Counted from the stretch's first letter, positions 1,166 through 39,302 are shown. The stretch: 64,000 bases of DNA from Escherichia coli (GCF_022846255.1 NZ_AP025682.1); one strand, 5' to 3'. Numbers and translations: made by a program. The notes: a model not told the origin generated them from the letters alone.

Positions 1166-1190
1166 GAAGGGATCTGTCGATCCCTCCTTT
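1166..1190. terminator. Hairpin between convergent ydcI and trg (putative bidirectional terminator)
   Basis: agggatc-tgtc-gatccct inverted repeat followed by a short T-run; lies between two convergent stop codons. Confidence 0.4.
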
Positions 1191-1197
1191 AACATTT

Positions 1198-2838
1198 TCA
1201 CACCGTAGCGAAACTAACTGGTTCACCCGCTCCGCGAGGTACTGCCGACACGGAATGTTTGTTCAGACGGAATACGTCCACCGCCTCAGTTAATCGTGCA
1301 GCCTGTTCTTCAAGGGACACCGCCGCTGCTGAGGCTTCTTCTACCAGAGAAGCATTCTGTTGCGTCACCTTATCCATTTCAGAAATCGCCTGGCTAACCT
1401 GCGTTATGCCTCTACTTTGTTCATCCGAGGCGGCGGCGATTTCCTGCATGATATGTGTGACACTCGCGACGGCATCAACAATAGTGCTCATGGTTTTCCC
1501 TGCCGTTGCCACCTCATCCGACCCCAGGTCAATTAACCTGACTGATTCACTGATCAAGCCTTCAATCTCTTTCGCCGCCTGAGCGCTGCGGCTTGCGAGT
1601 GTCCGTACTTCGCTGGCGACAACGGCAAATCCACGCCCTTGCTCACCCGCTCGCGCGGCTTCAACGGCAGCATTCAGTGCCAGAATATTCGTCTGGAAAG
1701 CAATACTGTTGATGACGGCGGTGATCTCAGAAATTTTCTTCGAACTCGTGGAGATAGCGCCCATCGTTTTTACTACACCGGAAACCGTCTGCCCGCCATT
1801 GCAGGCTTTAATAGAAGCCTCTTGCGCCAGTTTGCTGGCATGATGCGCGTTATCCGCATTCTGTTTCACCGTCGCAGTGAGTTGCTCCATGCTGGCGGCA
1901 GTTTGTTCAATTGCCGCCGCTTGTTCTTCAGTGCGAGATGAAAGGTCCGCATTGCCAGCGGAAATTTCGCTGGTGCCACGATAAATCTCTTCCGCGCCCT
2001 GTCGAACGGTCCCTACAGTCATCCCCAGTGAATGCTGCATTTGCTGTAAATGACGACTTAAGCGACCGATTTCATTACGACCCGCCGGTTCATCATTCAT
2101 CGTCAGATCGCCACTGGCGATTTTTTCAATCCGTTGTGCGGCATGTTGCAGTGGACGAATGACGATCCGACGTAGCACTATAAATGTTATCAGCGTCATG
2201 ACCAGGGCAAGCACAAACGCGCCAATCATGAACATCCCACCCAGGCGGGTGCGCTGATGGGCCAGTTCCGCCAGTTGGTTGGCTCTGGTGCTACGTATCT
2301 TAACGGCTTTGTTCAAAATATCGGTATAAGCATTATCCAGCGGTCGGATCTGCTCACTTTCATGATTGATAATCGCTTCAAACATGCCATTTTTGGCATA
2401 TTTCAACATCGGTTGCATACCCGTGATATAAGCCTGGAAGCGTTGATTTAATTCAGTGTCGAGGGCTTCATCAGCAGGTGTTTTCACCGACCGATTCTGA
2501 TAAGCACGATAACCTTGCTGCGACTGTTTAATCTCCGATTCGGCTTGCGCAATATTTCGCTTCATTGCTTCCATTTCCGCAATACGACTCGCTGCCCCGG
2601 CCTGAATCATATTGATCCGGGCTGAACGCAAAAAATCTGAACTGTTCGCTAACCCGGTCCGAATCTCAATCTCCGCAGTAACATCACGCTGATCGCGATC
2701 GGCCTGCCAGAGGAAATAGCCAGCCAGAGCAGAACTTAATGCGAATAGAACTAAGATACCGCCAAGAATGCAGGCAAATAACGGAACCAGCCTGATGTGA
2801 TGCAAAAAACCTAATCGCTGTGAGGGAGTTGTATTCAT
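1198..2838 (-). CDS. trg: Methyl-accepting chemotaxis protein III (ribose/galactose chemoreceptor), 546 aa
   Basis: 546 aa with two TM segments, HAMP domain and the MCP signalling domain ([34 protein letters not shown]); length and context match Trg. Confidence 0.9.
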
Positions 2839-3129
2839 TACCGTTGTCTCTCGTCCAGGTTTACTCCTGATAGAAAGTCATCGGCACTTGACGGTAATTA
2901 CTTATGACCAAAAACCTCTTTGCGTCACATTTTTACAACAATTATGGCAGAGAAGAATAATGCCATTGGAATGAAGAGAGTAACGAATGATTAAACTGGC
3001 AAACCCGAATGACGAAAAATTCTGGAAAACAGCACGCAATTTCGTCAGGTGATTATTTTCGTCCCTAAGGAAACCACATAGGATGCTCACGGGTGCCTGA
3101 GACTTTCTGTTTTCAGGCTAACCGGGAAT

Positions 3130-3200
3130 CAGAAAGACGAAGGCCCCGACCGATATTTCTATCAACCGAGGCCAACGAATGAACACAGCAATTCAGATCT
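3130..3200 (-). ncRNA. sokB: Putative Sok-type antisense RNA of the hokB locus (coordinates approximate)
   Basis: By analogy with hok/sok loci an antisense RNA is expected just upstream of hokB on the opposite strand; the minus strand here can form a stem (cgguugaua/uaucggucg with G-U pairs). Not verified by alignment. Confidence 0.25.
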
Positions 3201-3236
3201 TAGCCTCTTACCCGCCATCCGGCAAGGAGAAAGGCT

Positions 3237-3386
<150 letters not shown>

Positions 3387-3457
3387 GGGCAAGCGCGGGG
3401 ATTTTCCCCGCGCATCTGACTAGCAGATTCATTTTCTCATGGCACCCCTTTTACACT

Positions 3458-3631
3458 TCAGTTAGTGCATGTTTTTTTCGATGCACTAATAGAACCATCA
3501 TTACAGACAAATTTGCCGCCTGCCGTACAGTGTGAGATCCCCCCTTTCGAACCAGAACAGGGTTTGCGCCCGGCATCGGCATAAAAGGAAACAAGCGTTC
3601 CCATAACCAGGATAAGCGCCAGTTTTTTCAT
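3458..3631 (-). CDS. ydcA: Small secreted/lipoprotein-like protein, 57 aa
   Basis: Hand translation MKKLALILVMGTLVSFYADAGRKPCSGSKGGISHCTAGGKFVCNDGSISASKKTCTN with signal peptide; GGAGG RBS; position between hokB and cybB as in K-12. Confidence 0.75.
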   Translation of the reverse strand: MKKLALILVMGTLVSFYADAGRKPCSGSKGGISHCTAGGKFVCNDGSISASKKTCTN

Positions 3632-3801
3632 ATAACCTCCATGATTTATCGAATCTTATGTTCGATTTGAACGTTATACGCTGGTTTATTTTGATACCGT
3701 TGATGAGATCAAAGATCGGGTGAATTGATTAAAGATAAGCCAGATGGACGTATAGACAAGGATTATGGTTTTATTTGTCATACAAATAAATATAATAGGC
3801 G

Positions 3802-3866
3802 CTTCCGATGTAGGCCCGTATTCTTCGCCTGTACCACGGGTCGGTTTTAGTACAGGCGTTTTCTTT
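3802..3866 (+). ncRNA. rydC: RydC small regulatory RNA
   Basis: cttccgatgtaggcccgtattcttcgcctgtaccacgggtcggttttagtacaggcgttttcttt matches the RydC sequence as recalled (one possible substitution); TATAAT -10 at 3791..3796; ends in hairpin plus U-run; lies between ydcA and cybB. Confidence 0.7.
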
Positions 3867-3875
3867 AAATATCCT

Positions 3876-4406
3876 TCAGGAACGTTTACGCGGCATCATG
3901 CGTAGAAGTGTGTTGTCCTTCCAGAAATAGTGGTGTGCCAGTGCAGCCGCAGCGTGCAACCCGATGACAAAATATCCCAGATTCGCCAGCGTTTCATGCC
4001 ACGACTTTAAGCTATCAACCCGTTCGAAATTGGCCTCTGAAGCGTAAGGCATCGTCAAACCAAACGCAAACCACGGGTTGCCCCGGTTATACATCATCAC
4101 CAAACCAATCACTGGCAGCGCAATAAACAGGAGATAAATCACCAAATGGCCCAAATGCGCCAGTCCCGTCATCATCGGTTTTGGCTTAGGTATAATCGGC
4201 GGGGTTGGGCATTTCAGCCTTAACAAAAGACGAACCACCATCAGTACGAGAATTGAGATGCCACAGGAAACATGAATCATGTTGATGAGGGGCCGATCGC
4301 TACGTGGGAAGAAACCACGAAACTCCATTGCGCAATACGCTACGATAACCAGCAAAAAGACCAGCCAGTGAATGCTGATTTGTAACCTTGAGTATTTATT
4401 TCCCAT
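3876..4406 (-). CDS. cybB: Cytochrome b561, 176 aa
   Basis: Start taken at internal ATG (MGNKYSRLQISIHWLVFLLVIVAYCAMEF...) with aggaa RBS, giving the 176 aa length recalled for CybB; multi-TM haem-binding protein. Confidence 0.9.
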   Translation of the reverse strand: MGNKYSRLQISIHWLVFLLVIVAYCAMEFRGFFPRSDRPLINMIHVSCGISILVLMVVRLLLRLKCPTPPIIPKPKPMMTGLAHLGHLVIYLLFIALPVIGLVMMYNRGNPWFAFGLTMPYASEANFERVDSLKSWHETLANLGYFVIGLHAAAALAHHYFWKDNTLLRMMPRKRS

Positions 4407-4594
4407 AACATTTCCTGCTTTAACATAATTTGCCGTTAACATAACGGGCTTTTCTTAAAATTTCATTAAATATTGTTCACCTGTTTTCAGTACGTTACGT
4501 TTCGCTGCAAGAATGTAGATTGCCCATCCCGCCATCCTGGTCTAAGCCTGGAAAGGATCAATTTTCATCCGAACGTTCCTGACAGGAGAAGACC

Positions 4595-5596
4595 ATGAGT
4601 AAAGTTGGTATTAATGGTTTTGGTCGTATCGGTCGACTGGTGTTGCGTCGATTACTTGAAGTCAAAAGCAACATAGACGTTGTCGCTATTAATGATCTCA
4701 CTTCCCCAAAAATTCTCGCCTACCTGCTGAAACATGATTCAAACTACGGACCGTTCCCCTGGAGCGTTGATTATACGGAAGATTCACTTATCGTTGATGG
4801 GAAAAGTATCGCGGTTTACGCCGAAAAAGAGGCTAAAAATATTCCGTGGAAAGCGAAAGGCGCAGAAATCATTGTCGAATGTACAGGCTTTTATACCTCC
4901 GCCGAGAAATCGCAGGCGCATCTTGATGCTGGCGCGAAGAAGGTGTTGATTTCCGCCCCTGCCGGTGAAATGAAAACCATCGTTTATAACGTCAATGACG
5001 ACACTCTGGATGGCAACGACACCATTGTTTCCGTGGCGTCATGCACCACTAACTGCCTTGCGCCGATGGCCAAAGCCTTGCATGACAGTTTCGGGATAGA
5101 AGTCGGCACGATGACAACCATTCATGCCTATACCGGCACCCAGTCACTGGTGGATGGCCCACGTGGTAAAGATTTACGTGCTTCACGCGCAGCGGCAGAA
5201 AATATCATTCCCCACACTACGGGGGCGGCAAAAGCCATTGGTCTGGTGATCCCGGAACTGAGCGGCAAACTGAAAGGTCATGCGCAACGCGTGCCGGTGA
5301 AAACAGGTTCGGTCACTGAACTGGTGTCGATTCTCGGAAAAAAAGTGACTGCCGAAGAGGTGAACAACGCGCTTAAAAAGGCGACAAACAATAACGAGTC
5401 ATTTGGTTATACTGATGAAGAAATAGTCTCTTCCGATATCATTGGCAGCCATTTCGGTTCGGTGTTTGATGCCACGCAAACGGAAATTACCGCCGTGGGC
5501 GATTTACAACTGGTGAAAACGGTCGCCTGGTACGATAACGAATATGGCTTCGTCACACAGCTTATTCGCACCCTCGAAAAATTCGCTAAACTCTGA
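4595..5596 (+). CDS. gapC: Glyceraldehyde-3-phosphate dehydrogenase C, full-length 333 aa
   Basis: NAD-binding [10 protein letters not shown] motif and catalytic [10 protein letters not shown]; uninterrupted here, whereas gapC is a pseudogene in K-12. Confidence 0.9.
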
Positions 5597-5604
5597 CGCG
5601 CACA

Positions 5605-5632
5605 GGCGGAGGAAAAAACCTCCGCCTCTTTC
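5605..5632. terminator. Bidirectional intrinsic terminator between gapC and aldA
   Basis: ggcggagg-aaaaaa-cctccgcc perfect hairpin flanked by T/A runs, between convergent genes. Confidence 0.6.
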
Positions 5633-5637
5633 ACTCA

Positions 5638-7077
5638 TTACGACTGTAAATAAACCACCTGGGTCTGCAGATATTCATGCAAGCCATGTTTACCATCTGC
5701 GCCGCCAATACCGGATTTACGCCATCCAGCGTGGAAGCCTTGCATAGCTTCGAAGTTTTCACGGTTGATGTAAGTTTCACCAAACTTCAGCCCTTTAATG
5801 GCTTTCATCGCGACGTTCAGATTTTGGGTATAGATTGATGAGGTCAGGCCGTAATCACTGTCATTAGCCATTGAGATAGCCTCTTCCAGCGTGTCAAATG
5901 CGACCACCGGCAGAACCGGGCCAAAGGTTTCCTCATGCATAATCGACATTTCCTGGCGAACATCCAGCAGCAATGTCGGCGGATAATAATATCCTTTCCC
6001 CTCTACCGCTTTGCCACCCAACGCCACTCTCGCCCCTTCTTCTACTGCGCGCGCCACTTTTTGCTCAACCCTTTCCAGCGCCGCGGCGTTAATCAACGGT
6101 CCCATCGCAATGTCGTTGCGTTCAGCAGGGTTACCAAATTGAACCGCCTGCATCGCTTCACCCAGCCGATTGACGAACTGATCATAAATGCTTTTCTGTA
6201 CATAAACACGTTCTGCACAGTTACACACTTGCCCACTATTAATGACGCGTGAATCAACGATGGCTTTGACTGCCAGTTCAAGATCGGCATCGTCCATTAC
6301 GATAGCCGGTGCTTTACCCCCCAATTCCAGGCACACTTTGGTGATGTTTTTCGCCGCAGTCGCCATAATCTTTTCACCTGCAGAGACGCTGCCTGTCATA
6401 CTGACCATTGCGACCTTTGGGTTACCCGCCAGTTCTTGCCCAACGGTTTCACCACGCCCGAGTACAAGGTTAAACACGCCGCGCGGAAGGCCTATTTCAT
6501 CAACGATTTTGGCGAATGCAATCGCATTGTTTGGCGTAAATTCACTGGGTTTAATGACGATGGTATTACCGGTCAAAAGAGCGGGAGCCATTTTGCGGGC
6601 AATGAGGAAGAACGGAAAGTTCCACGGCAGAATGCCGGTAGTCACGCCAAGCGCACGTTTAAACAGAAGAATATTTTCTCCTGGACGATCGCTTTGAATA
6701 ATCTCGCCCTCGTAACGCCGTGCCCACTCCGCCATATAATCGATATAGTCCGCAGTAAAAGCCACTTCGACTTCAGCCAACTGCTGGATCTTGCCCCCTT
6801 CTTCGACAATCAGCGCACTGATTTCACTGGCACGTTCCCGGATCCCGGCGGAGATTTTGCGCAACCAACTGGCGCGTTCAATAGCAGGCAACGCTTCCCA
6901 TTCTGGTTGTGCACGTTCTGCTGCATCGATTGCCTTACGGGCATCCTCGGCCTGACCATCGGGAATGCGGGAAATGACAGCCTCTGTAGCAGGGTTTTCC
7001 ACATCAATCCATGCGTCTCCACGCCAGGTAACAAACTGTCCATCGATATACATAGGATGTTGAACGGGTACTGACAT
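5638..7077 (-). CDS. aldA: Lactaldehyde/glycolaldehyde dehydrogenase A, 479 aa
   Basis: 479 aa aldehyde dehydrogenase fold (catalytic Cys in GQVCNCAERVYV, ELGGKAP motif); length and neighbours match AldA. Confidence 0.9.
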   Translation of the reverse strand: MSVPVQHPMYIDGQFVTWRGDAWIDVENPATEAVISRIPDGQAEDARKAIDAAERAQPEWEALPAIERASWLRKISAGIRERASEISALIVEEGGKIQQLAEVEVAFTADYIDYMAEWARRYEGEIIQSDRPGENILLFKRALGVTTGILPWNFPFFLIARKMAPALLTGNTIVIKPSEFTPNNAIAFAKIVDEIGLPRGVFNLVLGRGETVGQELAGNPKVAMVSMTGSVSAGEKIMATAAKNITKVCLELGGKAPAIVMDDADLELAVKAIVDSRVINSGQVCNCAERVYVQKSIYDQFVNRLGEAMQAVQFGNPAERNDIAMGPLINAAALERVEQKVARAVEEGARVALGGKAVEGKGYYYPPTLLLDVRQEMSIMHEETFGPVLPVVAFDTLEEAISMANDSDYGLTSSIYTQNLNVAMKAIKGLKFGETYINRENFEAMQGFHAGWRKSGIGGADGKHGLHEYLQTQVVYLQS

Positions 7078-7273
7078 GGGCGACTCCTGTGATTTACATG
7101 TTTGTTTTTGGTAAATTTATTGTTAATTAACATCAATTATCAGAGAGACGGCATCGTGAAAGGACAATTCTGTGAAGGGCTTCATAAAAACAAGTGTAAA
7201 AGGAATTAAAGGCAGAAATAAAAGTCAGAAGTCATGCCCGTTTGCAAACAATTGGTTCACGAACGGGCAATTT

Positions 7274-8074
7274 TTAACGTAACGAGCGACTTTCCATCGC
7301 CTCGATGAGCACCGCATCGTGTTTCAGCGTTTGCCATGCCTGGATGACTTCTGCCGGAAAATCAACGTGAACGATAAAATCTCGCCCGCGGGGGCCGTAG
7401 CCATCGCTATCATCGCGTAAACGCGGCAGCTCGCCAGTGAGTAGCGATAGATAACGCTCAACCGGCCATAATCCTTGCAACGGATTAACAAAGATTACAC
7501 TGTCTGCGTTATTTCCTAACTGAGGAACGAATCCGGGATAACTTAACCAGCGTGGTGCATCGGGATTATCCCCGGTTATACGGCGGAACGTCGCCATCGT
7601 GCGCCGCTGCATGGTGGGGTCCTGAACAACGATAGCCGTATGAACTCGTTCTACGGCCTGATTCAATAGCGCGATGCTAAAGCGTGCGTTTTCACCGCAG
7701 TTTGTTGACTGGTCTTCAATCCAGATTTTTTCATGCGGAATATGCCAGAACTGATGAGCGATATCCGCCAGGATGGTAGCTTCAGCTCTGCCAGTGGTGC
7801 GGATAGTGTTGTAGTGTGGATGCTGTGCGATGGCGCTATACAAAAAAGTTGTCGAGTGACCGATACCACCACTAATCAGTAAAGGAATTTGCTGATCGCG
7901 GGCAATCTTACATGCCGCATCGATAGTCGGCATAACCGCATTGCCTGCAAGGATCACGCAATCGGCCTGATACGGCACCTCACCGGAGAAATCATCCTGC
8001 GCCAGCCACTGTCCGATAACATTTATGGCATCTATGGTTGCCGGCGAAAGCGTCGGAAACGGGGTAATATTCAT
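7274..8074 (-). CDS. ydcF: DUF218 family protein, 266 aa
   Basis: 266 aa ORF between aldA and hrpA, same length and position as K-12 ydcF. Confidence 0.8.
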
Positions 8075-8285
8075 GGTTCCTCCTTATCGTTCCCTTAAGA
8101 ATACTGCGTGAGATAATAGTGAGAAGCGGAGCACTCTGAAAGGAGGAAGTCGTATTTCCTTAACTGCCACTCCGCAAGCCTGACATATTTTTTAAGGAAA
8201 TGCTGTAGATAAACATTATTCATCTTGCAGCAGAGAATTGTATTTTTCTGAACTCCTGAATTTTTTCCCTTATCGTTTTTAGAAT

Positions 8286-8322
8286 TAATAAAAAACCCGG
8301 CGCTAAATGCTTACCGGGTTTT
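8286..8322 (-). terminator. Intrinsic terminator downstream of hrpA
   Basis: aacccgg...ccgggtt hairpin followed on the minus strand by a T-run. Confidence 0.5.
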
Positions 8323-8346
8323 AGATTTATCAGGCAAATAGCAGTG

Positions 8347-11300
8347 TTAACCGCTAATCTGCTCCATCGCCTGCAAAATACGCTTATCCGAAATCGGATA
8401 AGGCGTGCCAAGTTGTTGAGCGAAGTAACTAACGCGCAGCTCTTCTATCATCCAGCGGACCTCTTTCACGTCTTCATCCTCACGACGTGCAGGCGGTAGT
8501 TTGTTGATCCATTGCTGCCACGCCTGCTGGACGTTTTCGACTTTCAGCATCTGAGCACGGTCGCGATGTGGATCAATCGCCAGTTTTTCCAGTCGTTTTT
8601 CAATCGCCTGCAAATAACGCAGCGTGTCGCCCAGCCGTTTGAAGCCGTTACCAGTGACAAAACCGCGATACACCAGCCCGCCCATCTGCGCTTTAATGTC
8701 AGAAAGCCCCAGCGCCATGGTCATATCCACCCGCCCTTTCAGACGTTTGTTGATATTGAACACCGCAGTGAGGATTTGCTCGACCTGCTTCGCAATATCC
8801 ACCACTGTGTCGTTCAGTTCAGCGCGGACTTTTTCATGCAGCGCAGCAAAGCCTTCTTCCGTCCAGACCGGGCCACCATTGGCGTCGATCAGTTGATCCA
8901 CACCGCAGGAGATACAGTCGTCGATCAGCTCCAGCACTTTGCCATACGGGTTAAAGTACAGCCCCAGCTTGGCTTTGTTTGGCAACTTCTCATGCAAATA
9001 TTTGATTGGCGAGGGAATATTCAGCAGCAGTAAACGGCGAAGACCGTTCCACATTGCCTGCTTCTGTTCCAGCGGGTTATCAAACAGTTTGATCGCTACG
9101 CTGTCACGCTCATCCACCAGCGCCGGCCACGCCTTCACTTTGTAGTTGCCGCGCTTCTGCTCGTAGCTTTCCGGCAGTTGACCAAAACTCCAGATATGTA
9201 AACCGCTCTGCTCGATACCGTCATCCGCCACGGCAGACAGCGTTTCCTGCACTTTGCCTTTCAGGGCGTCTTTCAGATCCTGTAATGAGCGCCCTTCTTT
9301 TAGCTTCTTGTTTTTGTCATCCACCACGCGGAAAGTGATTTTCAGGTGATCGGGCACCTGATCCCAGTGCCAGTCTTCGCGGTCAACGGTGACGCCAGTC
9401 ATCCGCCGTAACTCTCGTTCAAGGCTGTCGAGCAACGGCAATTCCAGCGGTGTGACGCGGCCTAAAAACGCTTCGGCGTAGTTTGGCGCGGGCACAAAAT
9501 TACGGCGTACCGGCTTCGGCAGCGATTTAATCAGGGCGATGATCAGCTCACGACGCAGACCGGGGATCTGCCACTCAAACCCACTCTCCTCAACCTGGTT
9601 AAGTAACGGCAGCGGGATATGCACGGTCACACCGTCAGCATCCGCACCGGGCTCAAACTGATAGCTCAAACGCAGTTTGAGATTGCCCTGATGCCAGAAG
9701 TTCGGGTAATCCAGTTTGCTGATTTTTTCCGCCCCTTCTTTGATCAACATGCTCTTTTCAAAGTTGAGCAAATCAGGCGTTTCGCGGCTGACTTTTTTCC
9801 ACCAGCTGTCGAAGTGACGTGCGGAAATCACATCGTGGCTGATGCGCTGGTCGTAGAACTCAAACAGCGTTTCGTCATCCACCAGAATATCGCGGCGACG
9901 TGATTTGTGTTCCAGCTCTTCTACTTCCGCCCGTAGTTTCAGGTTTTCACGGAAGAATGCGTGACGCGTCTGCCAGTCACCTTCCACCAGCGCGTGGCGA
10001 ATAAAGAGTTCACGACATAACGCCGGATCGATCTGGCTGTAGTTGACCTTACGCGCAGCAACAATCGGCAACCCGTAAACAGTGACTTTTTCCGTTGCCA
10101 TCACCGCGCCCTGCGCCCGTTCCCAGTGCGGTTCGCTGTAGGTGCGTTTGATTAAATGCTGAGCGACAGGTTCCACCCATTCTGGATCGATGCGTGCCGC
10201 AATGCGCCCCCACAGGCGGCTGGTTTCTACCAGTTCCGCCACCATTACCCATTTCGGCGGCTTTTTGAATAAACCAGAACCGGGGAAGATGGAGAAACGC
10301 GCGTTACGTGCGCCGGTATATTCTTGTTTATCGGCATCTTTCATGCCGATATGCGAAAGCAAACCGGTCAGCAACGCAATGTGAATTTCGCGATAATCCG
10401 CCGGTTCGCTGTTAACCGGAATGCCAAGTTCTTTCACCACCTGGCGCAACTGGGTGTAGATATCCTGCCATTCGCGCACGCGCAGATAGTTGAGATAATC
10501 AGTACGACACAGGCGACGGAAGGCGTTTGAAGAAAGCGCCTTTTGCTGCTCGCCAAGATAATTCCACAGATTCACAAATGCCAGGAAGTCAGACTCTTTG
10601 TCGTGGAAGCGACGATGTTTTTCGTCAGATGCCTGCTGTTTATCCATCGGACGCTCACGCGGATCCTGAATGGAGAGCGCGGACGTGATAATCATCGCCT
10701 CACGCACGCAGCCATGTTTTTGCGCTTCCAGCACCATTCGCGCCAGACGAGGATCGACTGGCAGTTGCGAGAGCTGGCGACCGAGCGGCGTCAGTTTATA
10801 GGCGCTGGCCTGTTCATCAGTGGTGATCGCGCCCAGCTCTTCGAGCAGACGCACGCCATCCTGGATATTGCGTTTATCCGGTGCTTCGACAAACGGGAAT
10901 GCGGCGATATCGCCCAAGCCCAGTGCGGTCATCTGCAAAATAACCGAGGCCAGGTTAGTACGCAGAATTTCTGGGTCGGTAAACTCCGGGCGCGAGAGGA
11001 AATCGTCTTCGGAATAGAGACGAATACAGATCCCTTCTGACACACGACCGCAGCGGCCTTTACGCTGATTAGCTGAAGCCTGCGAAATTGGCTCAATCGG
11101 CAAACGCTGCACTTTGGTGCGATAGCTGTAGCGGCTGATACGCGCCGTACCTGGGTCGATAACGTATTTAATCCCCGGTACGGTCAGCGAGGTTTCCGCG
11201 ACGTTAGTCGCCAGCACAATGCGCCGTCCGCTGTGCGACTGGAAGACGCGGTTCTGCTCGCTGTTGGAAAGCCGTGCATAAAGCGGAAGAATTTCCGTAT

Positions 11301-12249
11301 GGCGTAAGTTCAGCTTGTTCAGCGCATCGGCGGTATCGCGAATTTCTCGCTCGCCGCTCATAAAAATCAGAATGTCGCCAGGGCTTTCCTGGCTCAGTTC
11401 ATCTACGGCATCGAAAATCGCCTGCAACTGGTCGCGCTCGGTGTCATCAGCTTCTTCAACAATCGGGCGATAGCGCACTTCCACCGGATAGGTCCGACCG
11501 GAGACTTCGATAATCGGCGCATTATTAAAGTGGCGCGAAAAGCGTTCCGGGTCGATAGTCGCGGAGGTGATAATAATTTTTAGGTCAGGACGCCGCGGCA
11601 GCAACTCTTTCAAATAGCCGAGGAGAAAATCGATATTCAGGCTGCGTTCGTGCGCTTCGTCAATAATGATGGTGTCGTACTGCATCAGCAGGCGGTCTTG
11701 CTGGATCTCTGCCAGCAGGATGCCGTCGGTCATCAGCTTGACCATCGTGTTATCACTGACGTGATCGCTGAAACGCACTTTGTAACCGATGCAACCGCCC
11801 GGCTCCGTTTTCAGCTCTTCCGCAATACGGTTCGCCACCGTTCTTGCCGCCAGGCGACGCGGCTGGGTATGGCCGATCAGCCCTTTAATCCCGCGCCCCA
11901 GCTCCATACAGATTTTCGGTAGCTGAGTCGTTTTACCGGAACCCGTTTCCCCGGCGACGATCACCACCTGGTGGTCACGAATCGCTTCGAGAATGTCCTG
12001 CTTTTTCTGACTAACCGGCAAATTGTCCGGGTAAGTAATCTCCGGTCGTGCCGCTTCACGCAGCAGGACTTTCCCTGCCGCATGGTCAATCTCTTTCGCC
12101 ATCTCCTGGAAAATGGCTTGTTGTGCATCAGGATTTTTAACCTTCTTCACACCGTGCAGACGGCGTAAAAAACGCTGTCTGTCGCGCAGCATCAGCGAAT
12201 CCAGCCGCTGCTGCAAGTCAGCAAAGGTCAATTTTTGTTGTTCTGTCAT
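8347..12249 (-). CDS. hrpA: ATP-dependent RNA helicase HrpA (DEAH-box), 1300 aa
   Basis: 1300 aa; Walker A GETGSGKTTQLP, DEAH motif (IIIDEAHERS), helicase C-terminal and HA2 regions. Confidence 0.95.
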   Translation of the reverse strand: MTEQQKLTFADLQQRLDSLMLRDRQRFLRRLHGVKKVKNPDAQQAIFQEMAKEIDHAAGKVLLREAARPEITYPDNLPVSQKKQDILEAIRDHQVVIVAGETGSGKTTQLPKICMELGRGIKGLIGHTQPRRLAARTVANRIAEELKTEPGGCIGYKVRFSDHVSDNTMVKLMTDGILLAEIQQDRLLMQYDTIIIDEAHERSLNIDFLLGYLKELLPRRPDLKIIITSATIDPERFSRHFNNAPIIEVSGRTYPVEVRYRPIVEEADDTERDQLQAIFDAVDELSQESPGDILIFMSGEREIRDTADALNKLNLRHTEILPLYARLSNSEQNRVFQSHSGRRIVLATNVAETSLTVPGIKYVIDPGTARISRYSYRTKVQRLPIEPISQASANQRKGRCGRVSEGICIRLYSEDDFLSRPEFTDPEILRTNLASVILQMTALGLGDIAAFPFVEAPDKRNIQDGVRLLEELGAITTDEQASAYKLTPLGRQLSQLPVDPRLARMVLEAQKHGCVREAMIITSALSIQDPRERPMDKQQASDEKHRRFHDKESDFLAFVNLWNYLGEQQKALSSNAFRRLCRTDYLNYLRVREWQDIYTQLRQVVKELGIPVNSEPADYREIHIALLTGLLSHIGMKDADKQEYTGARNARFSIFPGSGLFKKPPKWVMVAELVETSRLWGRIAARIDPEWVEPVAQHLIKRTYSEPHWERAQGAVMATEKVTVYGLPIVAARKVNYSQIDPALCRELFIRHALVEGDWQTRHAFFRENLKLRAEVEELEHKSRRRDILVDDETLFEFYDQRISHDVISARHFDSWWKKVSRETPDLLNFEKSMLIKEGAEKISKLDYPNFWHQGNLKLRLSYQFEPGADADGVTVHIPLPLLNQVEESGFEWQIPGLRRELIIALIKSLPKPVRRNFVPAPNYAEAFLGRVTPLELPLLDSLERELRRMTGVTVDREDWHWDQVPDHLKITFRVVDDKNKKLKEGRSLQDLKDALKGKVQETLSAVADDGIEQSGLHIWSFGQLPESYEQKRGNYKVKAWPALVDERDSVAIKLFDNPLEQKQAMWNGLRRLLLLNIPSPIKYLHEKLPNKAKLGLYFNPYGKVLELIDDCISCGVDQLIDANGGPVWTEEGFAALHEKVRAELNDTVVDIAKQVEQILTAVFNINKRLKGRVDMTMALGLSDIKAQMGGLVYRGFVTGNGFKRLGDTLRYLQAIEKRLEKLAIDPHRDRAQMLKVENVQQAWQQWINKLPPARREDEDVKEVRWMIEELRVSYFAQQLGTPYPISDKRILQAMEQISG

Positions 12250-12440
12250 AACGTTAGTGGGCAGTAGGCTGCCTGATTAATTTTCTTTTAAATGATAGAT
12301 ATAGAGTACCACATCGCGGCTTTCTATGCGTTGTTCAATAAATTCGAACATAGGCTTCGATTTATTGCGCTATCTCTGTGGCAGGATTGTGAATAAAGTG
12401 TCAACAAGCAACGGGGCATTGCCCATTCAAATATCTATAA

Positions 12441-13055
<615 letters not shown>

Positions 13056-13066
13056 GATTTATGATG

Positions 13067-13093
13067 CCTCCCACGAAAGTGGGAGGTTTTTTT
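13067..13093. terminator. Bidirectional intrinsic terminator between azoR and ydbC
   Basis: cctcccac-gaaa-gtgggagg hairpin followed by T7. Confidence 0.65.
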
Positions 13094-13095
13094 AT

Positions 13096-13962
13096 TTAAC
13101 CCGCCTTTTGCGCAATACTGTCCAGCGTTGCCAGCACGTCATCCGTTAGCACTAATTCATCGGACGCCATATTCTCCCGCAGATGCCCCACCGAAGAGGT
13201 GCCAGGAATCAACAAAATATTCGGTGAACGTTGTAACAGCCACGCCAGCGCCACCTGCATTGGTGTTGCACCCAGGCTCGTAGCAACATCGGAAAGCGTG
13301 GAGGATTGCAGCGGCGTAAAGCCCCCGAGCGGGAAGAACGGCACGTAGGCAATGCCATCACGAGCCAAAGCATCAATCATTGCGTCATCAGCACGGTGGG
13401 CAATGTTGTATTCGTTCTGCACGCAGACGATTTCGGCAATCTTTCGCGCCTCTGCAACCTGCGTCGGTGTGACGTTACTCAGGCCAATATGTTTTACCAG
13501 GCCTTGTTGTTGCATCTCCGCCAGCACTGTCAGGCTGGCCTCAATCGATCCTTCCGCTGGGCCATGACCATCCCCCATCATAACGCGCAGGTTAACCACA
13601 TCCAGTACGTCCAGGCCGAGATTACGTAGATTATCGTGTACCGCTTTTTGCAGCTCTGCCGGAGAAAATGCGGGTAACCAGGAAGCGTCCTCTCCACGCC
13701 GCGCACCAATTTTAGTGACAATTGTCAGGTCGTCAGAGTAAGGATAAAGCGCTTCGCGGATAATCTGATTGGTGACGTGCGGACCATAAAAGTCGCTGGT
13801 ATCAATATGATTGACGCCCAATGCCAGCGCCTCGCGCAGCACGGTTATAGCGACGTGGCGATCTCTTGGGGGGCCAAAAACCCCAGAACCAGCCAGTTGC
13901 ATCGCGCCATAACCAAGACGGTTAACGGATTTTGTACCGAGAGTAAATGTGTTGCTGCTCAT
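13096..13962 (-). CDS. ydbC: Aldo-keto reductase family oxidoreductase
   Basis: AKR fold (NHIDTSDFYG, catalytic Tyr/Lys context); position next to azoR matches ydbC. Confidence 0.8.
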   Translation of the reverse strand: MSSNTFTLGTKSVNRLGYGAMQLAGSGVFGPPRDRHVAITVLREALALGVNHIDTSDFYGPHVTNQIIREALYPYSDDLTIVTKIGARRGEDASWLPAFSPAELQKAVHDNLRNLGLDVLDVVNLRVMMGDGHGPAEGSIEASLTVLAEMQQQGLVKHIGLSNVTPTQVAEARKIAEIVCVQNEYNIAHRADDAMIDALARDGIAYVPFFPLGGFTPLQSSTLSDVATSLGATPMQVALAWLLQRSPNILLIPGTSSVGHLRENMASDELVLTDDVLATLDSIAQKAG

Positions 13963-14109
13963 CGCACCCTGCCCTGTAATAAAACGGATTAAGAAAAATC
14001 AGTATAGGAATGAATAGAGATAAATAATGCGAGGGTGTAAACAAGATTACTGGATGAGTAGCTCTAATATCCTGAAAGACACCAAAACAAGACGCGTCAA
14101 GTACCGCAT

Positions 14110-14149
14110 CCGGCAATAAAAAACCGCAACCTGTATCAGCGTTGCGGTT
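14110..14149 (-). terminator. Intrinsic terminator downstream of the paaY-like gene
   Basis: aaccgcaac...gttgcggtt hairpin followed on the minus strand by a T-run. Confidence 0.5.
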
Positions 14150-14162
14150 AAGGTATCACATG

Positions 14163-14783
14163 CTAAAAATTAGAACGTTCAGCATCTGGACGTGACTGTT
14201 TCGGTCGCAGATTCTCATCAAATACCAGACGCTGCCTGCCAGGTTCAACTTCCCGCAATGGCTCGACTTGATGCAACGTCTGCTTACAACGTGTCACCAG
14301 CACCTGATACTCATGCGTGCCCTGCTTTTTCCATGCCAGCTCCTGCTCACTAAGTTCACGAATCGCTTTTGCCGGGCTGCTGACAATCAGATAATTAGCA
14401 GGCATTTCTGCTTTGGCTTTCACAAATGCGGATGCGCCAACAATACTGTTCTCACCAATCACCGCACCGTCCATCACTACCGCGTTCATTCCCACTAACG
14501 CATTGCGGCGGATAATGCAGCCGTGAAGGATAGCGCTATGACCAATATGCCCATCTTCTTCAACGACAGTATCCTGCCCGGGAAAGCCGGGCATAACGCA
14601 ATTATCCTGAATGTTCGCGCCATCTTTCACCACGATACGACTAAAATCACCTCGCAGGCTGGCATTTGGTCCAACGTAAACGCCCTTGCCGAGAATAACA
14701 TCGCCGATCAATACCGCTGTCGGATGAACAAAACTCTCTTCTGTTACAATCGGAGTCAGACCGTCTATCTGATAAATTGGCAT
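14163..14783 (-). CDS. paaY: Hexapeptide-repeat (gamma-carbonic-anhydrase-like) protein, PaaY/CaiE/YrdA family
   Basis: Left-handed beta-helix hexapeptide repeats; N-terminus [11 protein letters not shown] resembles PaaY as recalled; genomic position corresponds to the end of the paa cluster, which is otherwise absent. Confidence 0.55.
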
Positions 14784-14889
14784 AACACCTCCTGTTCAAT
14801 ATTCAAACCGCCAAAACGTTGAAAATACAGGCTACCCGGCGAAGGCTGCTCACCGACCGAGGTTTCACCTTTTTCACTAACGAACGCTA

Positions 14890-31337: not shown

Positions 31338-31459
31338 AAAAAAAAGCCGACTCATCAAAGTCGGCGTCGTACGAATCAATTGTGCTATGCAGTAATTCAA
31401 AAAAGGAAGTAAGACAATATGGAGCGCAACGCCCATCGCTTGACGTTGCATTCACCTGC
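31338..31459 (-). ncRNA. fnrS: FnrS small RNA (FNR-activated)
   Basis: Minus strand reads gcaggtgaatgcaacgtcaagcgatgggcgttgcgctccatattgtcttacttcctttttt...gccgactttgatgagtcggctttttttt, matching FnrS as recalled; ~122 nt; between zntB and dbpA. Confidence 0.75.
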
Positions 31460-34045: not shown

Positions 34046-34609
34046 TCAACGACTGCGCTTAGCGTGGCGCTCCCAGTTTTCTTGCTTCGCCTGCGCTGTT
34101 TTACGTAGTGCGACGTAACACGCCCCGCTGCCGCCATGATGCGGTAGCGCAGTGCAATATGCCTGAACATCATCAAATTCGGTCAGCCAGCGCGCCACAT
34201 AGCTGCGGACAATATTGGCATGCGATTTATCATCCCGTCCTTTGCCATGAATAATCAGCACGTTACGCAAACCATCCGCCAGGGCTTGTTGAATGAAACT
34301 GAACATCATTTTGCGGCACTCTTCCACCGGCTGGCGCAAAAGATTCAGGCTCGCCTGTTGCGGATATTTACCACTGCGCAGCTTATCCAGCACCCCATGT
34401 TGCAACCCTTCCCGCCGAAACTCCAGCGGCTGACTTAGCGGGATGATGTCGAGAAATCCAGTGGTGAGGAAATTATCAAGTTGCAGCGTGTCGATACGCT
34501 GCGGCGCACGTTGGTTACGCGTTGGATGCCAGTGGACATCTGTAGCACGTTTCAGCGGCTGGACATCTTCCATGGCGTCAAGAAACAGCGATTTGTCGTC
34601 AAGGTTCAT
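34046..34609 (-). CDS. smrA: Smr-domain protein (putative DNA endonuclease), 187 aa
   Basis: C-terminal Smr domain (LIIHGKGRDD...); 187 aa; downstream of dgcM as ydaL is in K-12. Confidence 0.85.
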   Translation of the reverse strand: MNLDDKSLFLDAMEDVQPLKRATDVHWHPTRNQRAPQRIDTLQLDNFLTTGFLDIIPLSQPLEFRREGLQHGVLDKLRSGKYPQQASLNLLRQPVEECRKMMFSFIQQALADGLRNVLIIHGKGRDDKSHANIVRSYVARWLTEFDDVQAYCTALPHHGGSGACYVALRKTAQAKQENWERHAKRSR

Positions 34610-34803
34610 GTAACCTCCTATGCACCTTCACACGTCGTGATTCAGACGGGTTAATTGTTCATACTTACTGCATCGTTCCCTTCACAGATTGAAACAATAC
34701 TCTACTTCATACCTGTGAGTATCTGCGCAGGCGGGGCATTTTATACTAGCCTGTTAGCAGTATCGAACAGTTTAGCCCGAGTTTAATTCAGCACAGGCTC
34801 CGA

Positions 34804-36318
34804 TCAGGATGATTTATTCATAGCAGGAACCAACAAAAATGCGATAAATAACAGACCACTGATTAGCAGAAAGGTATCCGAAAATGCCATAGTTTGCGCC
34901 TCCCTCAGCATCAATTGACTCAATAATTTGGTTGAAGCCAGTATTTCCGATGTCTGGTCACTTCCACTGCGATTAAAAAACAAAGCACTTCTGGAAATGA
35001 AGTCATTCACCGTATGGGGAACAGAAACCATTTTTTCACCCATTCTCGAAAAATGAAAATTAGTTCGATTATTGAGAATAGAGCCACACAGGGCAATACC
35101 AATTGCGCCCCCAAGATTACGTGTTAAATTAAATACACCAGAGGCTAACTTCAGCCGTTCTTTTGGAATTCCCCCCAGCGTTAATGTTACGATGGGGGCC
35201 ATCGCAAACTGCTGCGAAATCCCTCTAATTGCCTGTGGAAACAGTAACTCCTGCCATCCCCATTCGTGGGTTATAGGGGTAAAAAGATACATTGAAAACA
35301 CAAATCCGCCCAGCCCCGCCATCAACAGCCATTGCAGATTTATTTTTTTACTTAACCAGAAGTAAAAGGGAACAGAAAATAACTGGAAAATACCTGTTGT
35401 GCAAACGGCAAAACCTATCTCTTCGGCATTTAATCCGCGAACCTGCCCCAAAAACACAGGTATTAAATATACAGTAGAGAATATTCCAACCCCTCCAGAA
35501 AAAGAAAAGAAACATCCCAGTGTGAAATATTTATCCTTAAAAGCATGAAGATCCATTATCGGATTGGATATTTTAAGTGTACGCGCAGCAAATAAAATAA
35601 AACTTACCAATGCCAGAACTGATGTCAGCAAAATAGTATTATCATCCAGCCATCCCCAGCGCGCTCCTTCTTCAAGGGTATATTCCAGACATCCCAGTGT
35701 CATGGCCAACAGGATAATACTCGGATAATCAGCAACTTTCAGTAAAGAGAGATCAGGTTTATCAAAATTAACCAGAAAAGGAATACTCAAAACTAAATAT
35801 ATGCCCGGTAATATATTGATATAAAATAGCCATCGCCAGTCGAGGTTATCAGTGATCCAGCCCCCCAGAGTTGGCCCTAGCGTCGGTGACAGTGAGGCCA
35901 GCGCACTGACTACCGCAGCAGCCAACCCCAACTCTTTACCCTGGTAATAAATAAACGCCGTCGTGAAAACTAAAGGGATCATGGATGCGCCAGCAACTCC
36001 CTGTAAAGCACGAAAAAAAATCATGATCTGAATATTCCATGCAAGTCCACAAGCGATACTCATTAAAGTAAATATTCCCGCGGATAGAGTAAAAAGCCAA
36101 CGAGTGGAAAATACCCGTGACAGCCACCCAGAGAGCGGAATAACAATAATCTCGGCAATTAAATAGCTGGTCTGAAGCCAGGCCATTTCGTCTTTACCTG
36201 CGGACAGACCACCACCTATTTCATTTAGGGATGACGATACAATTTGAATATCAAGCTGAGCAATAAATAATCCAATACACATACTGGCGAAAGCAATATG
36301 TTTACGCATAGACATCAT
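34804..36318 (-). CDS. MFS multidrug efflux transporter, EmrB/QacA (DHA2) family, 504 aa
   Basis: ~14 predicted TM segments with DHA2 motifs; overlaps the upstream membrane-fusion gene by 4 bp. Confidence 0.8.
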   Translation of the reverse strand: MMSMRKHIAFASMCIGLFIAQLDIQIVSSSLNEIGGGLSAGKDEMAWLQTSYLIAEIIVIPLSGWLSRVFSTRWLFTLSAGIFTLMSIACGLAWNIQIMIFFRALQGVAGASMIPLVFTTAFIYYQGKELGLAAAVVSALASLSPTLGPTLGGWITDNLDWRWLFYINILPGIYLVLSIPFLVNFDKPDLSLLKVADYPSIILLAMTLGCLEYTLEEGARWGWLDDNTILLTSVLALVSFILFAARTLKISNPIMDLHAFKDKYFTLGCFFSFSGGVGIFSTVYLIPVFLGQVRGLNAEEIGFAVCTTGIFQLFSVPFYFWLSKKINLQWLLMAGLGGFVFSMYLFTPITHEWGWQELLFPQAIRGISQQFAMAPIVTLTLGGIPKERLKLASGVFNLTRNLGGAIGIALCGSILNNRTNFHFSRMGEKMVSVPHTVNDFISRSALFFNRSGSDQTSEILASTKLLSQLMLREAQTMAFSDTFLLISGLLFIAFLLVPAMNKSS

Positions 36319-37346
36319 CTCTCATCAACACTGACGGTGACGGACAGTCCCGGGCGAAGAAGTTGCTTTAATTCCTTTGCGTCGTCAAATGCAATCCGTA
36401 CCGGGACACGCTGAACAATTTTGGTGAAATTGCCAGTGGCATTTTCTATCGGAATCAAGCTGAAACTGGCTCCTGTCGCTGGGGAAAGGCTTTCAATGTG
36501 ACCGTGAAACACTTCCCCTTTGAGAATATCAGCACGGATCTCAGCCTTCATTCCTGGCTTCATTCCCGCTATTTGGTTTTCTTTATAATTTGCATCAACC
36601 CACAACTCACTGACTGGTACTAGTGAAACTAACGATGTGCCGCCTTCCACCCAACTGCCTGTATGGGCGCTGCGGTTTGCGACAATGCCATCAATCGGCG
36701 CACGAACAAGGGTATATTCCAGATCCAGTAGTGCCTGAGTCAAAGCGGCCTGAACTTCTTCGATACTTGCACGTACGTTTTCTTCCTGAGCAGATAAAAC
36801 TGCCAGCCGTTGCTTCTCCACCAGGAAATCGTTCGCGGCTTTGCGCTCCTTTGCTGCGACCTGCTGGTAGTCAAACCTGGCGTTATCAATAATTTGTTGC
36901 GATATTGCCGCTGATTGTGCGAGTTTTTCATAACGTTCAGTATCTCGCAGGCGCTTTTGCTCCTCATGTTTTACTGCCTGCCATGTTTCACTGGCACTTT
37001 GAATTATCGACTGCTGCATCGCAATAGTGGCTTGAATGCTTTCGAGATTGGCTTTGCTACTTTTTATTTTTGCCTCAAGCCTGCCGACATTTGCACGATA
37101 ATCCCGATCATCGAGACGCAGGATAATATCGCCTTTTTTTACACTCTGATTATCGCGCACCTCTATAGCAGAAATATAACCAGAAACTTTACTTGCCACC
37201 GTGGTGATATTACCACCAATGTAAGCATCATCCGTCGTCTGTATAAATCTTCCTTTGCTTACCCACCAGATAAAAAAGACAACGCCAGCCAAAAGAATAC
37301 CGATCGCTACCACCCCAATAAGCTGTTTTTTAGAAATTATCATCAT
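36315..37346 (-). CDS. Membrane fusion protein, HlyD/EmrA family, 343 aa
   Basis: N-terminal TM anchor, coiled-coil region and HlyD-type beta-barrel; translationally coupled to the MFS gene. Confidence 0.8.
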   Translation of the reverse strand: MMIISKKQLIGVVAIGILLAGVVFFIWWVSKGRFIQTTDDAYIGGNITTVASKVSGYISAIEVRDNQSVKKGDIILRLDDRDYRANVGRLEAKIKSSKANLESIQATIAMQQSIIQSASETWQAVKHEEQKRLRDTERYEKLAQSAAISQQIIDNARFDYQQVAAKERKAANDFLVEKQRLAVLSAQEENVRASIEEVQAALTQALLDLEYTLVRAPIDGIVANRSAHTGSWVEGGTSLVSLVPVSELWVDANYKENQIAGMKPGMKAEIRADILKGEVFHGHIESLSPATGASFSLIPIENATGNFTKIVQRVPVRIAFDDAKELKQLLRPGLSVTVSVDER

Positions 37347-37439
37347 TCTTTACACCGTATATATCCGGAAACTTGCATACGTCATATTTAAAATTTAACA
37401 TGGCTTATTTGATGATTTCTGACAAAATACCTACTGTAA

Positions 37440-38255
37440 ATGACAATCACACTGCAACCCAAAGCATCACCAGGGCATCACATTATCGGACTGGATTCGG
37501 AACATCTGAATGGAGGCACAGTTCCCTGGCATAAACATCTCTATGCCCAGTTGCTTTACCCGGCTGAAGGAGTCGTTCGTATATGGGCTGGAGAAAGCGT
37601 CTGGCTAGTGCATGCCAGCAGCGCGCTTTGGCTGCCCCCACAAATGCCGCATAAGTTTGTTGCGACAGGCAACGTACTTTTAAAAACCGTACTGGTTTCA
37701 GAAGCGGAAAGTGAAACGCTGGGAAAAGTTTGCTTCATGACGGGTATTTCACCCCTGTTAAGGGAATTACTAATTGCAATTAACCAACTTCCACCGTCGC
37801 AAAGTACCACAGATAAACAACAGTTACGTTTTTCAGCCCTCGAGACACTGATACTTCAGGAAATAAAAATGGGGGTGAAAATGTCACTTGAACTCCCTTG
37901 GCCAAATGATGAGCTGCTACAGCAGCTTTGTGAGAATTTGCTAAACAACCAAGGGTATCTGCCAACACTGGATAATCTAGCGGATAAAATTAACGTCAGT
38001 AGCCGTACACTCATGCGCTTATTTGTTAAAGAGACGGGATTAACATTTCGCCACTGGGTTCAGCAAATGCACGTTATTTCTGCAGTGACGCTTCTTGATG
38101 ATGGATATTCGTTGACCAAAATTGCCCATCGTCTGGGCTATGCCTCAGCTGAATCGTTCGGCAATATGTTTAAGCGTCGAACGGGCTACTCACCCGGTAA
38201 ATTTACTCGTCGATTAACGATGCATGATTATGCAATCACAAGACAAATGATTTAA
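37440..38255 (+). CDS. AraC-family transcriptional regulator with cupin-like N-terminal domain, 271 aa
   Basis: C-terminal AraC HTH (KIAHRLGYASAESFGNMFKRRTGYSPGKF); divergent from the MFP-MFS operon. Confidence 0.75.
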   Translation: MTITLQPKASPGHHIIGLDSEHLNGGTVPWHKHLYAQLLYPAEGVVRIWAGESVWLVHASSALWLPPQMPHKFVATGNVLLKTVLVSEAESETLGKVCFMTGISPLLRELLIAINQLPPSQSTTDKQQLRFSALETLILQEIKMGVKMSLELPWPNDELLQQLCENLLNNQGYLPTLDNLADKINVSSRTLMRLFVKETGLTFRHWVQQMHVISAVTLLDDGYSLTKIAHRLGYASAESFGNMFKRRTGYSPGKFTRRLTMHDYAITRQMI

Positions 38256-38324
38256 CTTATATTTTCGTGAAATCTGTCACTGAAGAAAATTGGCAACGGA
38301 TGGGTAAAACCGTTATAACACTGT

Positions 38325-38420
38325 CACCGGTCACCAGGACCCCAGGCCGGATTTAAGACGAGGATGCACTGCTGTGTGTACTGTAGAGTCTGGCGGATGT
38401 CGACAGGCTCTATTTTTTTA
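38325..38420 (+). ncRNA. mcaS: McaS (IsrA) small RNA
   Basis: ...ggccggatttaagacgaggatgcactgctgtgtgtactgtagagtctggcggatgtcgacaggctctattttttt matches McaS as recalled, including GGA motifs and terminal hairpin plus U-run. Confidence 0.65.
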
Positions 38421-38626
38421 TTCATTTTTTAGCTCTGTAAATAACCACATTCTCGCCGGGATTGGGGAATGAGTGACGAGATCAGTGGTGTCTGGCGGCT
38501 ATCACGCCACAGAATCAAATAACGGATAGCCTACGGTAAAATTTCGCTGACTGGAATTATCCCACCCTCGATCCATGTGATGGCTTGCCCTCATTTCTTC
38601 AGGCAGAAAAATCAAAAAATCGCTTT

Positions 38627-38776
38627 ATGCTTAAATACTGCGACAAACCAGACGCGAAACCTGGTACTTACTTTTTGTTAGTATTAATCTTTTTGGTGGT
38701 ATGGCTGCTGATGTTGCTGGCGTGGTATCTTGTTGGCTTGCCGATAGGTCCGGGTATTTACCCACGTTTGTCTTAA
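38627..38776 (+). CDS. Hypothetical 49 aa single-TM peptide immediately upstream of ogt (possibly a 3' remnant of abgT)
   Basis: [55 protein letters not shown]; no clear RBS; occupies the position of the abgT 3' end in K-12. Confidence 0.25.
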
Positions 38777-38786
38777 GAGAGAACGG

Positions 38787-39302
38787 ATGCTGAGATTACT
38801 TGAAGAAAAAATTGCCACGCCACTGGGTCCACTGTGGGTGATTTGCGATGAGCAATTTCGCCTGCGGGCGGTTGAATGGGAAGAGTACAGCGAACGCATG
38901 GTGCAGCTGCTGGACATCCATTACCGCAAAGAAGGCTATGAACGTATTTCTGCCACCAACCCAGGTGGTTTAAGTGACAAGCTTCGTGAATATTTTGCCG
39001 GTAATCTTAGCATTATTGATACGCTTCCCACTGCCACGGGGGGGACGCCATTTCAGCGCGAAGTCTGGAAAACACTGCGCACTATCCCCTGCGGGCAGGT
39101 AATGCATTATGGCCAACTGGCTGAACAATTAGGCCGCCCTGGCGCGGCGCGTGCCGTTGGTGCGGCAAACGGATCGAATCCCATCAGCATCGTCGTACCT
39201 TGCCATCGGGTTATTGGCCGAAACGGCACCATGACCGGATATGCAGGCGGAGTTCAGCGAAAAGAGTGGTTATTGCGCCACGAAGGTTATCTTTTGCTGT
39301 AA
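38787..39302 (+). CDS. ogt: O6-alkylguanine-DNA alkyltransferase, 171 aa
   Basis: Active-site PCHRVI motif; 171 aa; upstream of fnr. Confidence 0.9.

Follow-up and report, generated by a model that had tools for sequence, protein, structure and literature searches.

A putative AraC-regulated efflux module, probably acquired by horizontal transfer, in the ogt-smrA interval of Escherichia coli

What stands between ogt and smrA in Escherichia coli strains that lack the abg operon, is it intact, and how did it come to lie there? In E. coli K-12 this interval reads ogt-abgTBA-abgR-mcaS-smrA, and comparison with K-12 bore out the order ogt-abgT-abgB-abgA-abgR-mcaS-smrA that the initial annotation of the present locus had given. 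The sequence analysed here, hereafter the window, is a stretch of 64,000 nucleotides (nt) from E. coli (GCF_022846255.1, NZ_AP025682.1), in which positions 34,804 to 38,776 span a cassette of three genes absent from K-12, followed by the small RNA (sRNA) McaS and the remains of two abg genes. The reading that we regard as likely is an AraC-regulated three-gene efflux module inserted by horizontal transfer, with a separate abg deletion and presumable export through a TolC-type channel. The initial observation was confirmed as correct and its interpretation was supported with the qualifications given below.

Family searches on the window (open reading frame (ORF) list, Pfam, NCBIfam and Rfam) gave the order smrA, a DHA2-family major facilitator superfamily (MFS) pump (minus strand), an HlyD/EmrA-like adaptor (minus), an AraC-type regulator (plus), McaS, an abgR 3' remnant, an abgT 3' remnant and ogt. 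The features, with the evidence for each, are as follows:

34046..34609, minus strand: smrA, flanking gene (Pfam Smr; RefSeq annotation; blastn breakpoints)
34620..34803, no strand: haplotype-specific spacer of 184 nt from the MFS stop codon to smrA
34804..36318, minus strand: DHA2-family MFS efflux permease, 504 amino acids (aa), 14 hydrophobic segments (TIGR00711, Pfam MFS_1)
36315..37346, minus strand: HlyD-family periplasmic adaptor (membrane fusion protein, MFP), 343 aa, or 342 from the second ATG (Pfam HlyD_D23, HlyD_3, Biotin_lipoyl_2)
37347..37439, no strand: regulatory region of 93 nt that separates the divergent MFP and AraC genes
37440..38255, plus strand: AraC/XylS-family regulator, 271 aa (Pfam cupin and HTH_18)
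38266..38281, plus strand: CRP-like palindrome CGTGAAATCTGTCACT within the native DNA kept upstream of mcaS (pattern match)
38326..38421, plus strand: McaS sRNA, variant allele (RF00115; alignment to K-12; fold)
38430..38630, minus strand: abgR 3' remnant, a pseudogene fragment of ~200 nt (RefSeq annotation in the closest strain; alignment to K-12 and DETEC-P649)
38640..38776, plus strand: abgT 3' remnant (Pfam ABG_transport, positions 459-500 of 502; blastn to abgT)
38787..39302, plus strand: ogt, flanking gene (Pfam; RefSeq annotation)

The regulator gene divergent from a coupled HlyD-family adaptor and a 14-segment DHA2 pump was thus recovered exactly where the initial annotation had placed each element. 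The permease matched TIGR00711 in one stretch over model positions 3-480 of 485 (NCBIfam; 400.9 bits against a cutoff of 230.2), which assigns it to the DHA2 subfamily, and its ORF also matched Pfam MFS_1. Fourteen hydropathy peaks were resolved, with a long loop ahead of the last segment. DHA2 transporters are characterised by antiporter motif C (GPxxGG) in transmembrane segment 5 and by an acidic residue in transmembrane segment 1; in the alignment of permease orthologues, LGPTLGG (residues 147-153) and D23 are invariant. The permease is colinear with EmrB chain 8zal_J (E = 7e-55, with the EmrB alignment over residues 12-489) and shares 29.9% identity with EmrB and 29.1% with EmrY, which are mutually 64% identical, and it did not reach the EmrB equivalog (NF000391, 213.1 versus a cutoff of 925). 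An AlphaFold2 model of the permease, built from a 9-sequence alignment, had a mean predicted local distance difference test score (pLDDT) of 45.7; it was too poor and was set aside.

The adaptor scored above the Pfam cutoffs of the HlyD family, with its lipoyl, barrel-sandwich and beta-barrel domains, for PF16576 (68.7 bits), PF13437 (60.3 bits) and PF13533 (41.3 bits), and a hydrophobic segment at residues 9-27 provides an N-terminal membrane anchor. It matched EmrA chain 8zar_A over residues 6-341 with 31.1% identity to EmrA and 30.5% to EmrK, and fell short of the EmrA equivalog (NF011715, 206.2 versus 563). The stop codon of the adaptor gene overlaps the start codon of the permease gene by 4 nt (ATGA), in agreement with the translational coupling proposed for the pair. 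With ~30% identity to EmrAB and EmrKY and scores below the equivalog cutoffs, the pair does not correspond to an already characterised named system; this degree of identity indicates that permease and adaptor form a third paralogue beside EmrAB and EmrKY and not an allele of either.

The regulator combines an N-terminal cupin ligand-binding domain with a C-terminal HTH_18 domain, as the Pfam scores for HTH_18 (77.7 versus 33.6), AraC_binding (33.1 versus 21.1) and Cupin_2 (28.7 versus 27.2) placed it in the AraC/XylS family with a cupin sensor. None of the NCBIfam equivalog cutoffs was reached by this protein, and no close solved structure was found for it. Strains S6 and E69 (CP089930.1, a GTDB species representative that was deposited as E. 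coli) share the 93-nt divergent region with 100% identity, and DETEC-P649 departs from it by 1 nt; the region contains a conserved block, TTAACATGnCTTnTTTGATnATT, common to Kluyvera and Salmonella. Promoter-like hexamers are present on both strands of the region at a frequency not above chance, and the same is true of the terminator counts. A direct repeat with 21-nt spacing was considered as a candidate regulator site and rejected, as its 10 matches in 15 positions were no better than those of shuffled sequence.

Among known systems, EmrAB-TolC of E. coli K-12 (8zal, 8zar) is alike in joining an MFP and a DHA2 permease with 14 transmembrane segments in one operon without an outer-membrane factor (OMF) gene, and almost the entire cassette adaptor can be aligned to EmrA. 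It differs in that about 45 residues at the EmrA termini are missing from the cassette adaptor, and in that emrAB is preceded by the MarR-type EmrR whereas the cassette carries a divergent AraC/cupin regulator. EmrKY-TolC of E. coli and Shigella has the same two-gene MFP/MFS architecture with overlapping genes, yet the identity is just 29.1% for the permease and 30.5% for the adaptor. EmrKY is governed by the EvgAS two-component system, in contrast to the dedicated AraC-type protein of the cassette; the review that describes this control (PMC8277102) names two E. coli MFS systems of the EmrAB type, EmrAB-TolC and EmrKY-TolC. Closer relatives were found outside E. coli. The orthologous modules of Kluyvera, Citrobacter, Hafnia, Pluralibacter, Yokenella and Salmonella enterica encode permeases with 82% and regulators with 76-79% identity, and in K. 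cryocrescens and S. enterica all three genes were confirmed to lie in the arrangement seen in E. coli. These modules occupy other chromosomal sites, have a divergent region of 114 nt against 93 nt in E. coli, and encode regulators mostly of 259-262 aa without the 11-residue tail of the E. coli protein. In Paraburkholderia, MarR-MFP-MFS-OMF operons contain a permease about 50% identical to that of the cassette, closer than EmrB, with an adjoining HlyD-family adaptor; they differ in having their own OMF gene and a MarR regulator. By analogy, these homologues support a tripartite pump. A scan of genome contigs for homologues by exact peptide words yielded seven loci.

From this domain content, a working model of the module can be proposed. 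A small-molecule ligand would bind the cupin domain of the regulator, and the ligand-bound protein would activate the divergent promoter of the translationally coupled adaptor and permease genes. The adaptor and permease would then join an outer-membrane channel whose gene lies elsewhere, TolC being the most likely one, and the proton gradient would drive expulsion of the inducing compound or a related amphipathic one. Activation by the AraC protein, the use of TolC and efflux itself are the steps that we infer, and the family membership, gene content, intactness, purifying selection, direction of insertion and population frequency of the cassette are observed.

The arrangement is not unusual, for it occurs in about a quarter of complete E. 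coli genomes and is annotated in RefSeq. Among 5426 complete E. coli genomes, a collection biased to clinical isolates and counted by megablast coverage thresholds on which the numbers depend, at least 80% of the cassette was present in 1316 genomes and some part of it in 1457, and the abg-deletion junction was found in 1170. Gain of the cassette and loss of abg are two separate, independent polymorphisms, because 314 genomes carry the cassette with abgR intact. Named carriers include sequence type 131 (ST131) strains, Nissle 1917 and APEC IMT5155, which we take to belong to phylogroup B2, and the layout is common among phylogroup-B2-type strains.

Several findings weigh against an intact, horizontally acquired efflux module. 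With respect to function, the adaptor missed the cutoff of the EmrA/EmrK subfamily (TIGR00998, 265.3 versus 390.8) in spite of a full-length match (3-334 of 334), and therefore the "EmrAB-like" label of the initial annotation holds for the architecture and not for orthology. The cassette ORFs include no OMF gene; enterobacterial MFS pumps usually borrow this component from another operon (review, PMC8277102). No regulator binding site above chance could be defined in the 93-nt region. With respect to mobility, 34620-38219 contains no integrase or transposase gene and no terminal direct or inverted repeats pairing its borders, so that it does not have the marks of a mobile element, and the 184-nt spacer matched neither K-12 nor the sequence that follows the MFS gene in Kluyvera and Salmonella. 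With respect to integrity, the ratio of nonsynonymous to synonymous substitution rates (dN/dS) is 0.02-0.06 in the flanks versus 0.14-0.30 in the cassette, which marks looser selection on the latter, and about 140 of the 1457 carriers (about 10%) have damaged copies with under 80% of the cassette. In O2:H1 HM670, at 1744-2373 of its locus, MFS and MFP fragments have been fused by an internal deletion that spared the regulator; in strain 98224, at 3248-4648 of its locus, an IS1-associated loss leaves only part of the regulator gene; the E69 MFS gene is split by a 1-nt gap (frameshift) into ORFs 6980-7843 and 7792-8502 of its locus; and S. flexneri has a truncated form of the permease.

These losses bear on the explanation that the pump gene is a decaying pseudogene and the cassette a non-functional remnant. 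One point in its favour comes from RefSeq, where the Prokaryotic Genome Annotation Pipeline (PGAP) calls the permease "frameshifted" in all five E. coli records inspected, one of them with a gene identical to that of the window. The annotated span is 34863-36318, and its 3' end, position 34863 of the window, is an alternative-frame stop (...IPFC*). This end coincides with the stop of truncated S. flexneri proteins of 484 and 488 aa (WP_162471458.1), which end in ...MAFSVPFC, and the "frameshifted" flag is for this reason most likely an artefact of a truncated S. flexneri reference. The 504-aa ORF aligns end to end and gap-free, at 82% identity, with 505-aa orthologues, the last transmembrane segment included, and TIGR00711 is matched without interruption. 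The recurrence of disruption in some lineages and the higher dN/dS of the cassette than of its flanks suit decay, and AT-rich DNA would be compatible with silencing; against this, the dN/dS of the three cassette genes, 0.14-0.30 within Escherichia and 0.04 versus Kluyvera, is well under 1, and conservation of the regulatory region reaches 99-100%. The cassette is under purifying selection that is more relaxed than on the flanks, and a decaying pump gene is accordingly an improbable description of the copy in the window.

An intact pump need not be a xenobiotic pump, and the module might instead be dedicated to the export of a product or signal that B2 strains make themselves, for example a peptide, a siderophore or some metabolite. 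DHA2/MFP systems are known to export endogenous compounds in some bacteria, and the cassette is tied to strains presumably of phylogroup B2, which are rich in secondary-metabolite islands. This idea can be examined against the neighbourhoods of the module. The unit of a divergent AraC gene and an MFP-MFS pair was found in K. cryocrescens and S. enterica in unrelated neighbourhoods, and in K. intermedia the MFP-MFS pair adjoins ychF-pth at a contig end; with E. coli this makes four genomic contexts, with unrelated neighbours in each species. Biosynthetic genes are linked to the module in none of the four, and a ligand-sensing AraC protein beside a pump would be typical of inducible detoxification. 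Export of an endogenous product consequently seems unlikely, and an inducible efflux module remains the preferred reading.

How the module reached this site was addressed from its borders. Homology to K-12 (about 98%) reaches as far as 34619, which lies 10 nt upstream of the ATG of smrA, and restarts at 38220 (blastn); the 3600 nt in between (34620-38219) stand in place of 111 nt of K-12 and contain just the three genes. The spacer at 34620-34803 replaces the whole ancestral smrA upstream region bar these 10 nt. Homology between species reaches no further than the MFS stop codon on one side and the AraC ORF end on the other, and this limitation to the unit, together with its occurrence in unrelated contexts, points to an acquired module. 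Most orthologous regulators (Kluyvera, Salmonella and others; 259-262 aa) end where K-12 homology begins, which indicates that AraC codons 261-271 (38220-38255; MHDYAITRQMI) belong to the native E. coli sequence, into which the imported gene reads, and not to the cassette. The GC content is 43.9% in the cassette versus 49.2% in the window. Between the window and E69, synonymous divergence (dS) is 0.08-0.18 in the cassette and 0.33-0.91 in the flanks (smrA, ogt, dgcM), and the identity is 94.5-97.3% for the cassette genes against 84-93% for the flanks. The 111 nt that form the K-12 smrA upstream spacer are homologous to the corresponding spacers of C. koseri and C. rodentium, in both of which ogt adjoins smrA without the cassette and without abg genes. 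In the plasmid collection, the E. coli matches were chromosome-sized or mislabelled records with the look of chromosomes or chromosome fragments, besides distant homologues, and the cassette was not plasmid-borne.

The shared Citrobacter spacer, the native AraC tail, the low GC and the lower dS than in the flanks indicate that the cassette is a horizontally acquired, derived insertion between smrA and mcaS. In this course of events, the module would have entered the ancestral spacer between the divergent smrA and mcaS, displacing about 111 nt beside smrA, the regulator would have lost its own stop codon and come to read 11 codons into native DNA, and a separate 5-kb deletion from inside abgR to inside abgT would have taken out the p-aminobenzoyl-glutamate operon in most carriers. 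The converse, that the cassette is ancestral and was deleted from K-12-type strains, is hardly credible and already largely refuted: the sequence in K-12 homologous to the final 36 nt of the AraC ORF, which might pass for a deletion scar and was dropped as one, starts exactly where most orthologous AraC proteins end, as expected if the ORF had captured native DNA, and the divergent genome E69, which over 14.6 kb, at 368-14864 of its locus, is ~91% identical to the window and fully collinear, including the cassette and the abg deletion, is outweighed by the homology of the 111 nt of K-12 to the smrA upstream region of cassette-free Citrobacter, a cassette dS 2-10 times under that of the flanks and the low cassette GC.

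The initial annotation had also reported abgRABT as absent, which is right for the operon; a ~200-nt abgR 3' remnant on the minus strand, at about 38430-38630, had been overlooked. DETEC-P649 combines the cassette with an intact abg operon, and by comparison 5050 bp are missing from the window; the deletion extends from within abgR to a point 149 nt short of the abgT end. The suggestion that a 49-codon ORF (38627-38776, within a listed 63-aa ORF) might be the 3' scar of abgT was upheld by a match to the last ~40 positions of Pfam ABG_transport (E = 2.5e-6, 26.4 bits, 0.6 below the cutoff) and by blastn, in which homology to K-12 runs from window position 38640, starting inside abgT (14194 of the K-12 locus), and continues into ogt. 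The block of the abgT remnant has about 85% identity to K-12 with a 12-nt gap. This remnant (38640-38776) exists in at least two alleles, which are distinguished by a 12-nt indel and about 11% substitutions. The abg junction of the window was found at 99% identity or above in only 189 genomes, and 1018 genomes fell in the 90-95% band.

The abgR remnant is annotated by RefSeq in the closest strain as "LysR family... missing N-terminus". It is about 75% identical to functional abgR (K-12, DETEC-P649) and 92% identical to the E69 remnant, and the adjacent genes are 96-98% identical to K-12. Such divergence exceeds the neutral decay expected over the E. coli timescale, and a possible cause is an old, divergent haplotype combined with a recombination event that had its breakpoint within mcaS. 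The E. coli abg-deletion junction is common to the window, strain S6 and E69. In C. koseri, the smrA-ogt interval contains a McaS homologue (59.4 bits) together with ~100 nt of the abgT 3' end adjoining ogt; C. rodentium has neither. The sites compared are 8466-8762 of the C. koseri locus and 8714-9010 of the C. rodentium locus. The C. koseri locus is without an abgR remnant, and its deletion endpoint therefore differs, which indicates an independent and older loss of abg in that species. By this comparison, abg appears to be old at this locus and to have been lost more than once.

With the cassette on one side and the abg deletion on the other, mcaS is flanked by variable DNA on both sides, as the initial annotation had noted. 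McaS matched RF00115 over positions 1-96 of 96 with 112.8 bits against a gathering threshold of 42. The allele differs from that of K-12 in stem-loop 1, where 8 positions of the 12-nt loop are changed with AGGA kept, and where a double change in the stem turns G-U into C-G. The four GGA motifs are all kept, and the predicted fold comprises the same three hairpins as in K-12. The same allele is present in DETEC-P649; the S6 sequence does not differ from that of the window, and the E69 sequence shares 95.8% identity with it. Upstream of mcaS, 106 nt of native DNA are retained, and the columns of the CRP-like site are invariant between the window and K-12. Elsewhere in the window, the sRNA FnrS was located at 31342-31459 (RF01796, 134.8 bits) at its usual site adjoining zntB, an ordinary finding.

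The DNA from the AraC stop codon (38255) to the start of mcaS (38326) contains no terminator-like site, and no minus-strand one was seen between the MFS stop codon and smrA, where a single promoter-like site lies on the minus strand (34766->34738). It is conceivable, at rather long odds, that the insertion has rewired its two neighbours, with McaS forming the 3' end of the regulator mRNA and transcription of the pump operon continuing into smrA. If so, an sRNA of biofilm and motility and a DNA endonuclease would be coupled to the inducer of a B2-specific efflux system, and, together with the altered McaS loop, lineages of the extraintestinal pathogenic E. coli (ExPEC) type would have a McaS circuit unlike that of K-12.

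No paper that names or describes the cassette pump came up in literature searches on gene names, neighbours of the locus and RefSeq accessions. The module is conceptually an ordinary regulator-plus-pump arrangement, and its novelty is limited to that of an uncharacterised member of a well-known and already annotated type. If functional, it would be a third MFP-dependent MFS efflux system in E. coli, carried by roughly a quarter of complete genomes and absent from K-12, the strain in which nearly all efflux work was done. The pseudogene label in RefSeq leaves the permease without a protein accession in those records, and it may be overlooked in proteome-based pan-genome and resistome surveys. 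The cassette is a candidate determinant of lineage-specific tolerance to some compound, whether host-derived, dietary or antimicrobial.

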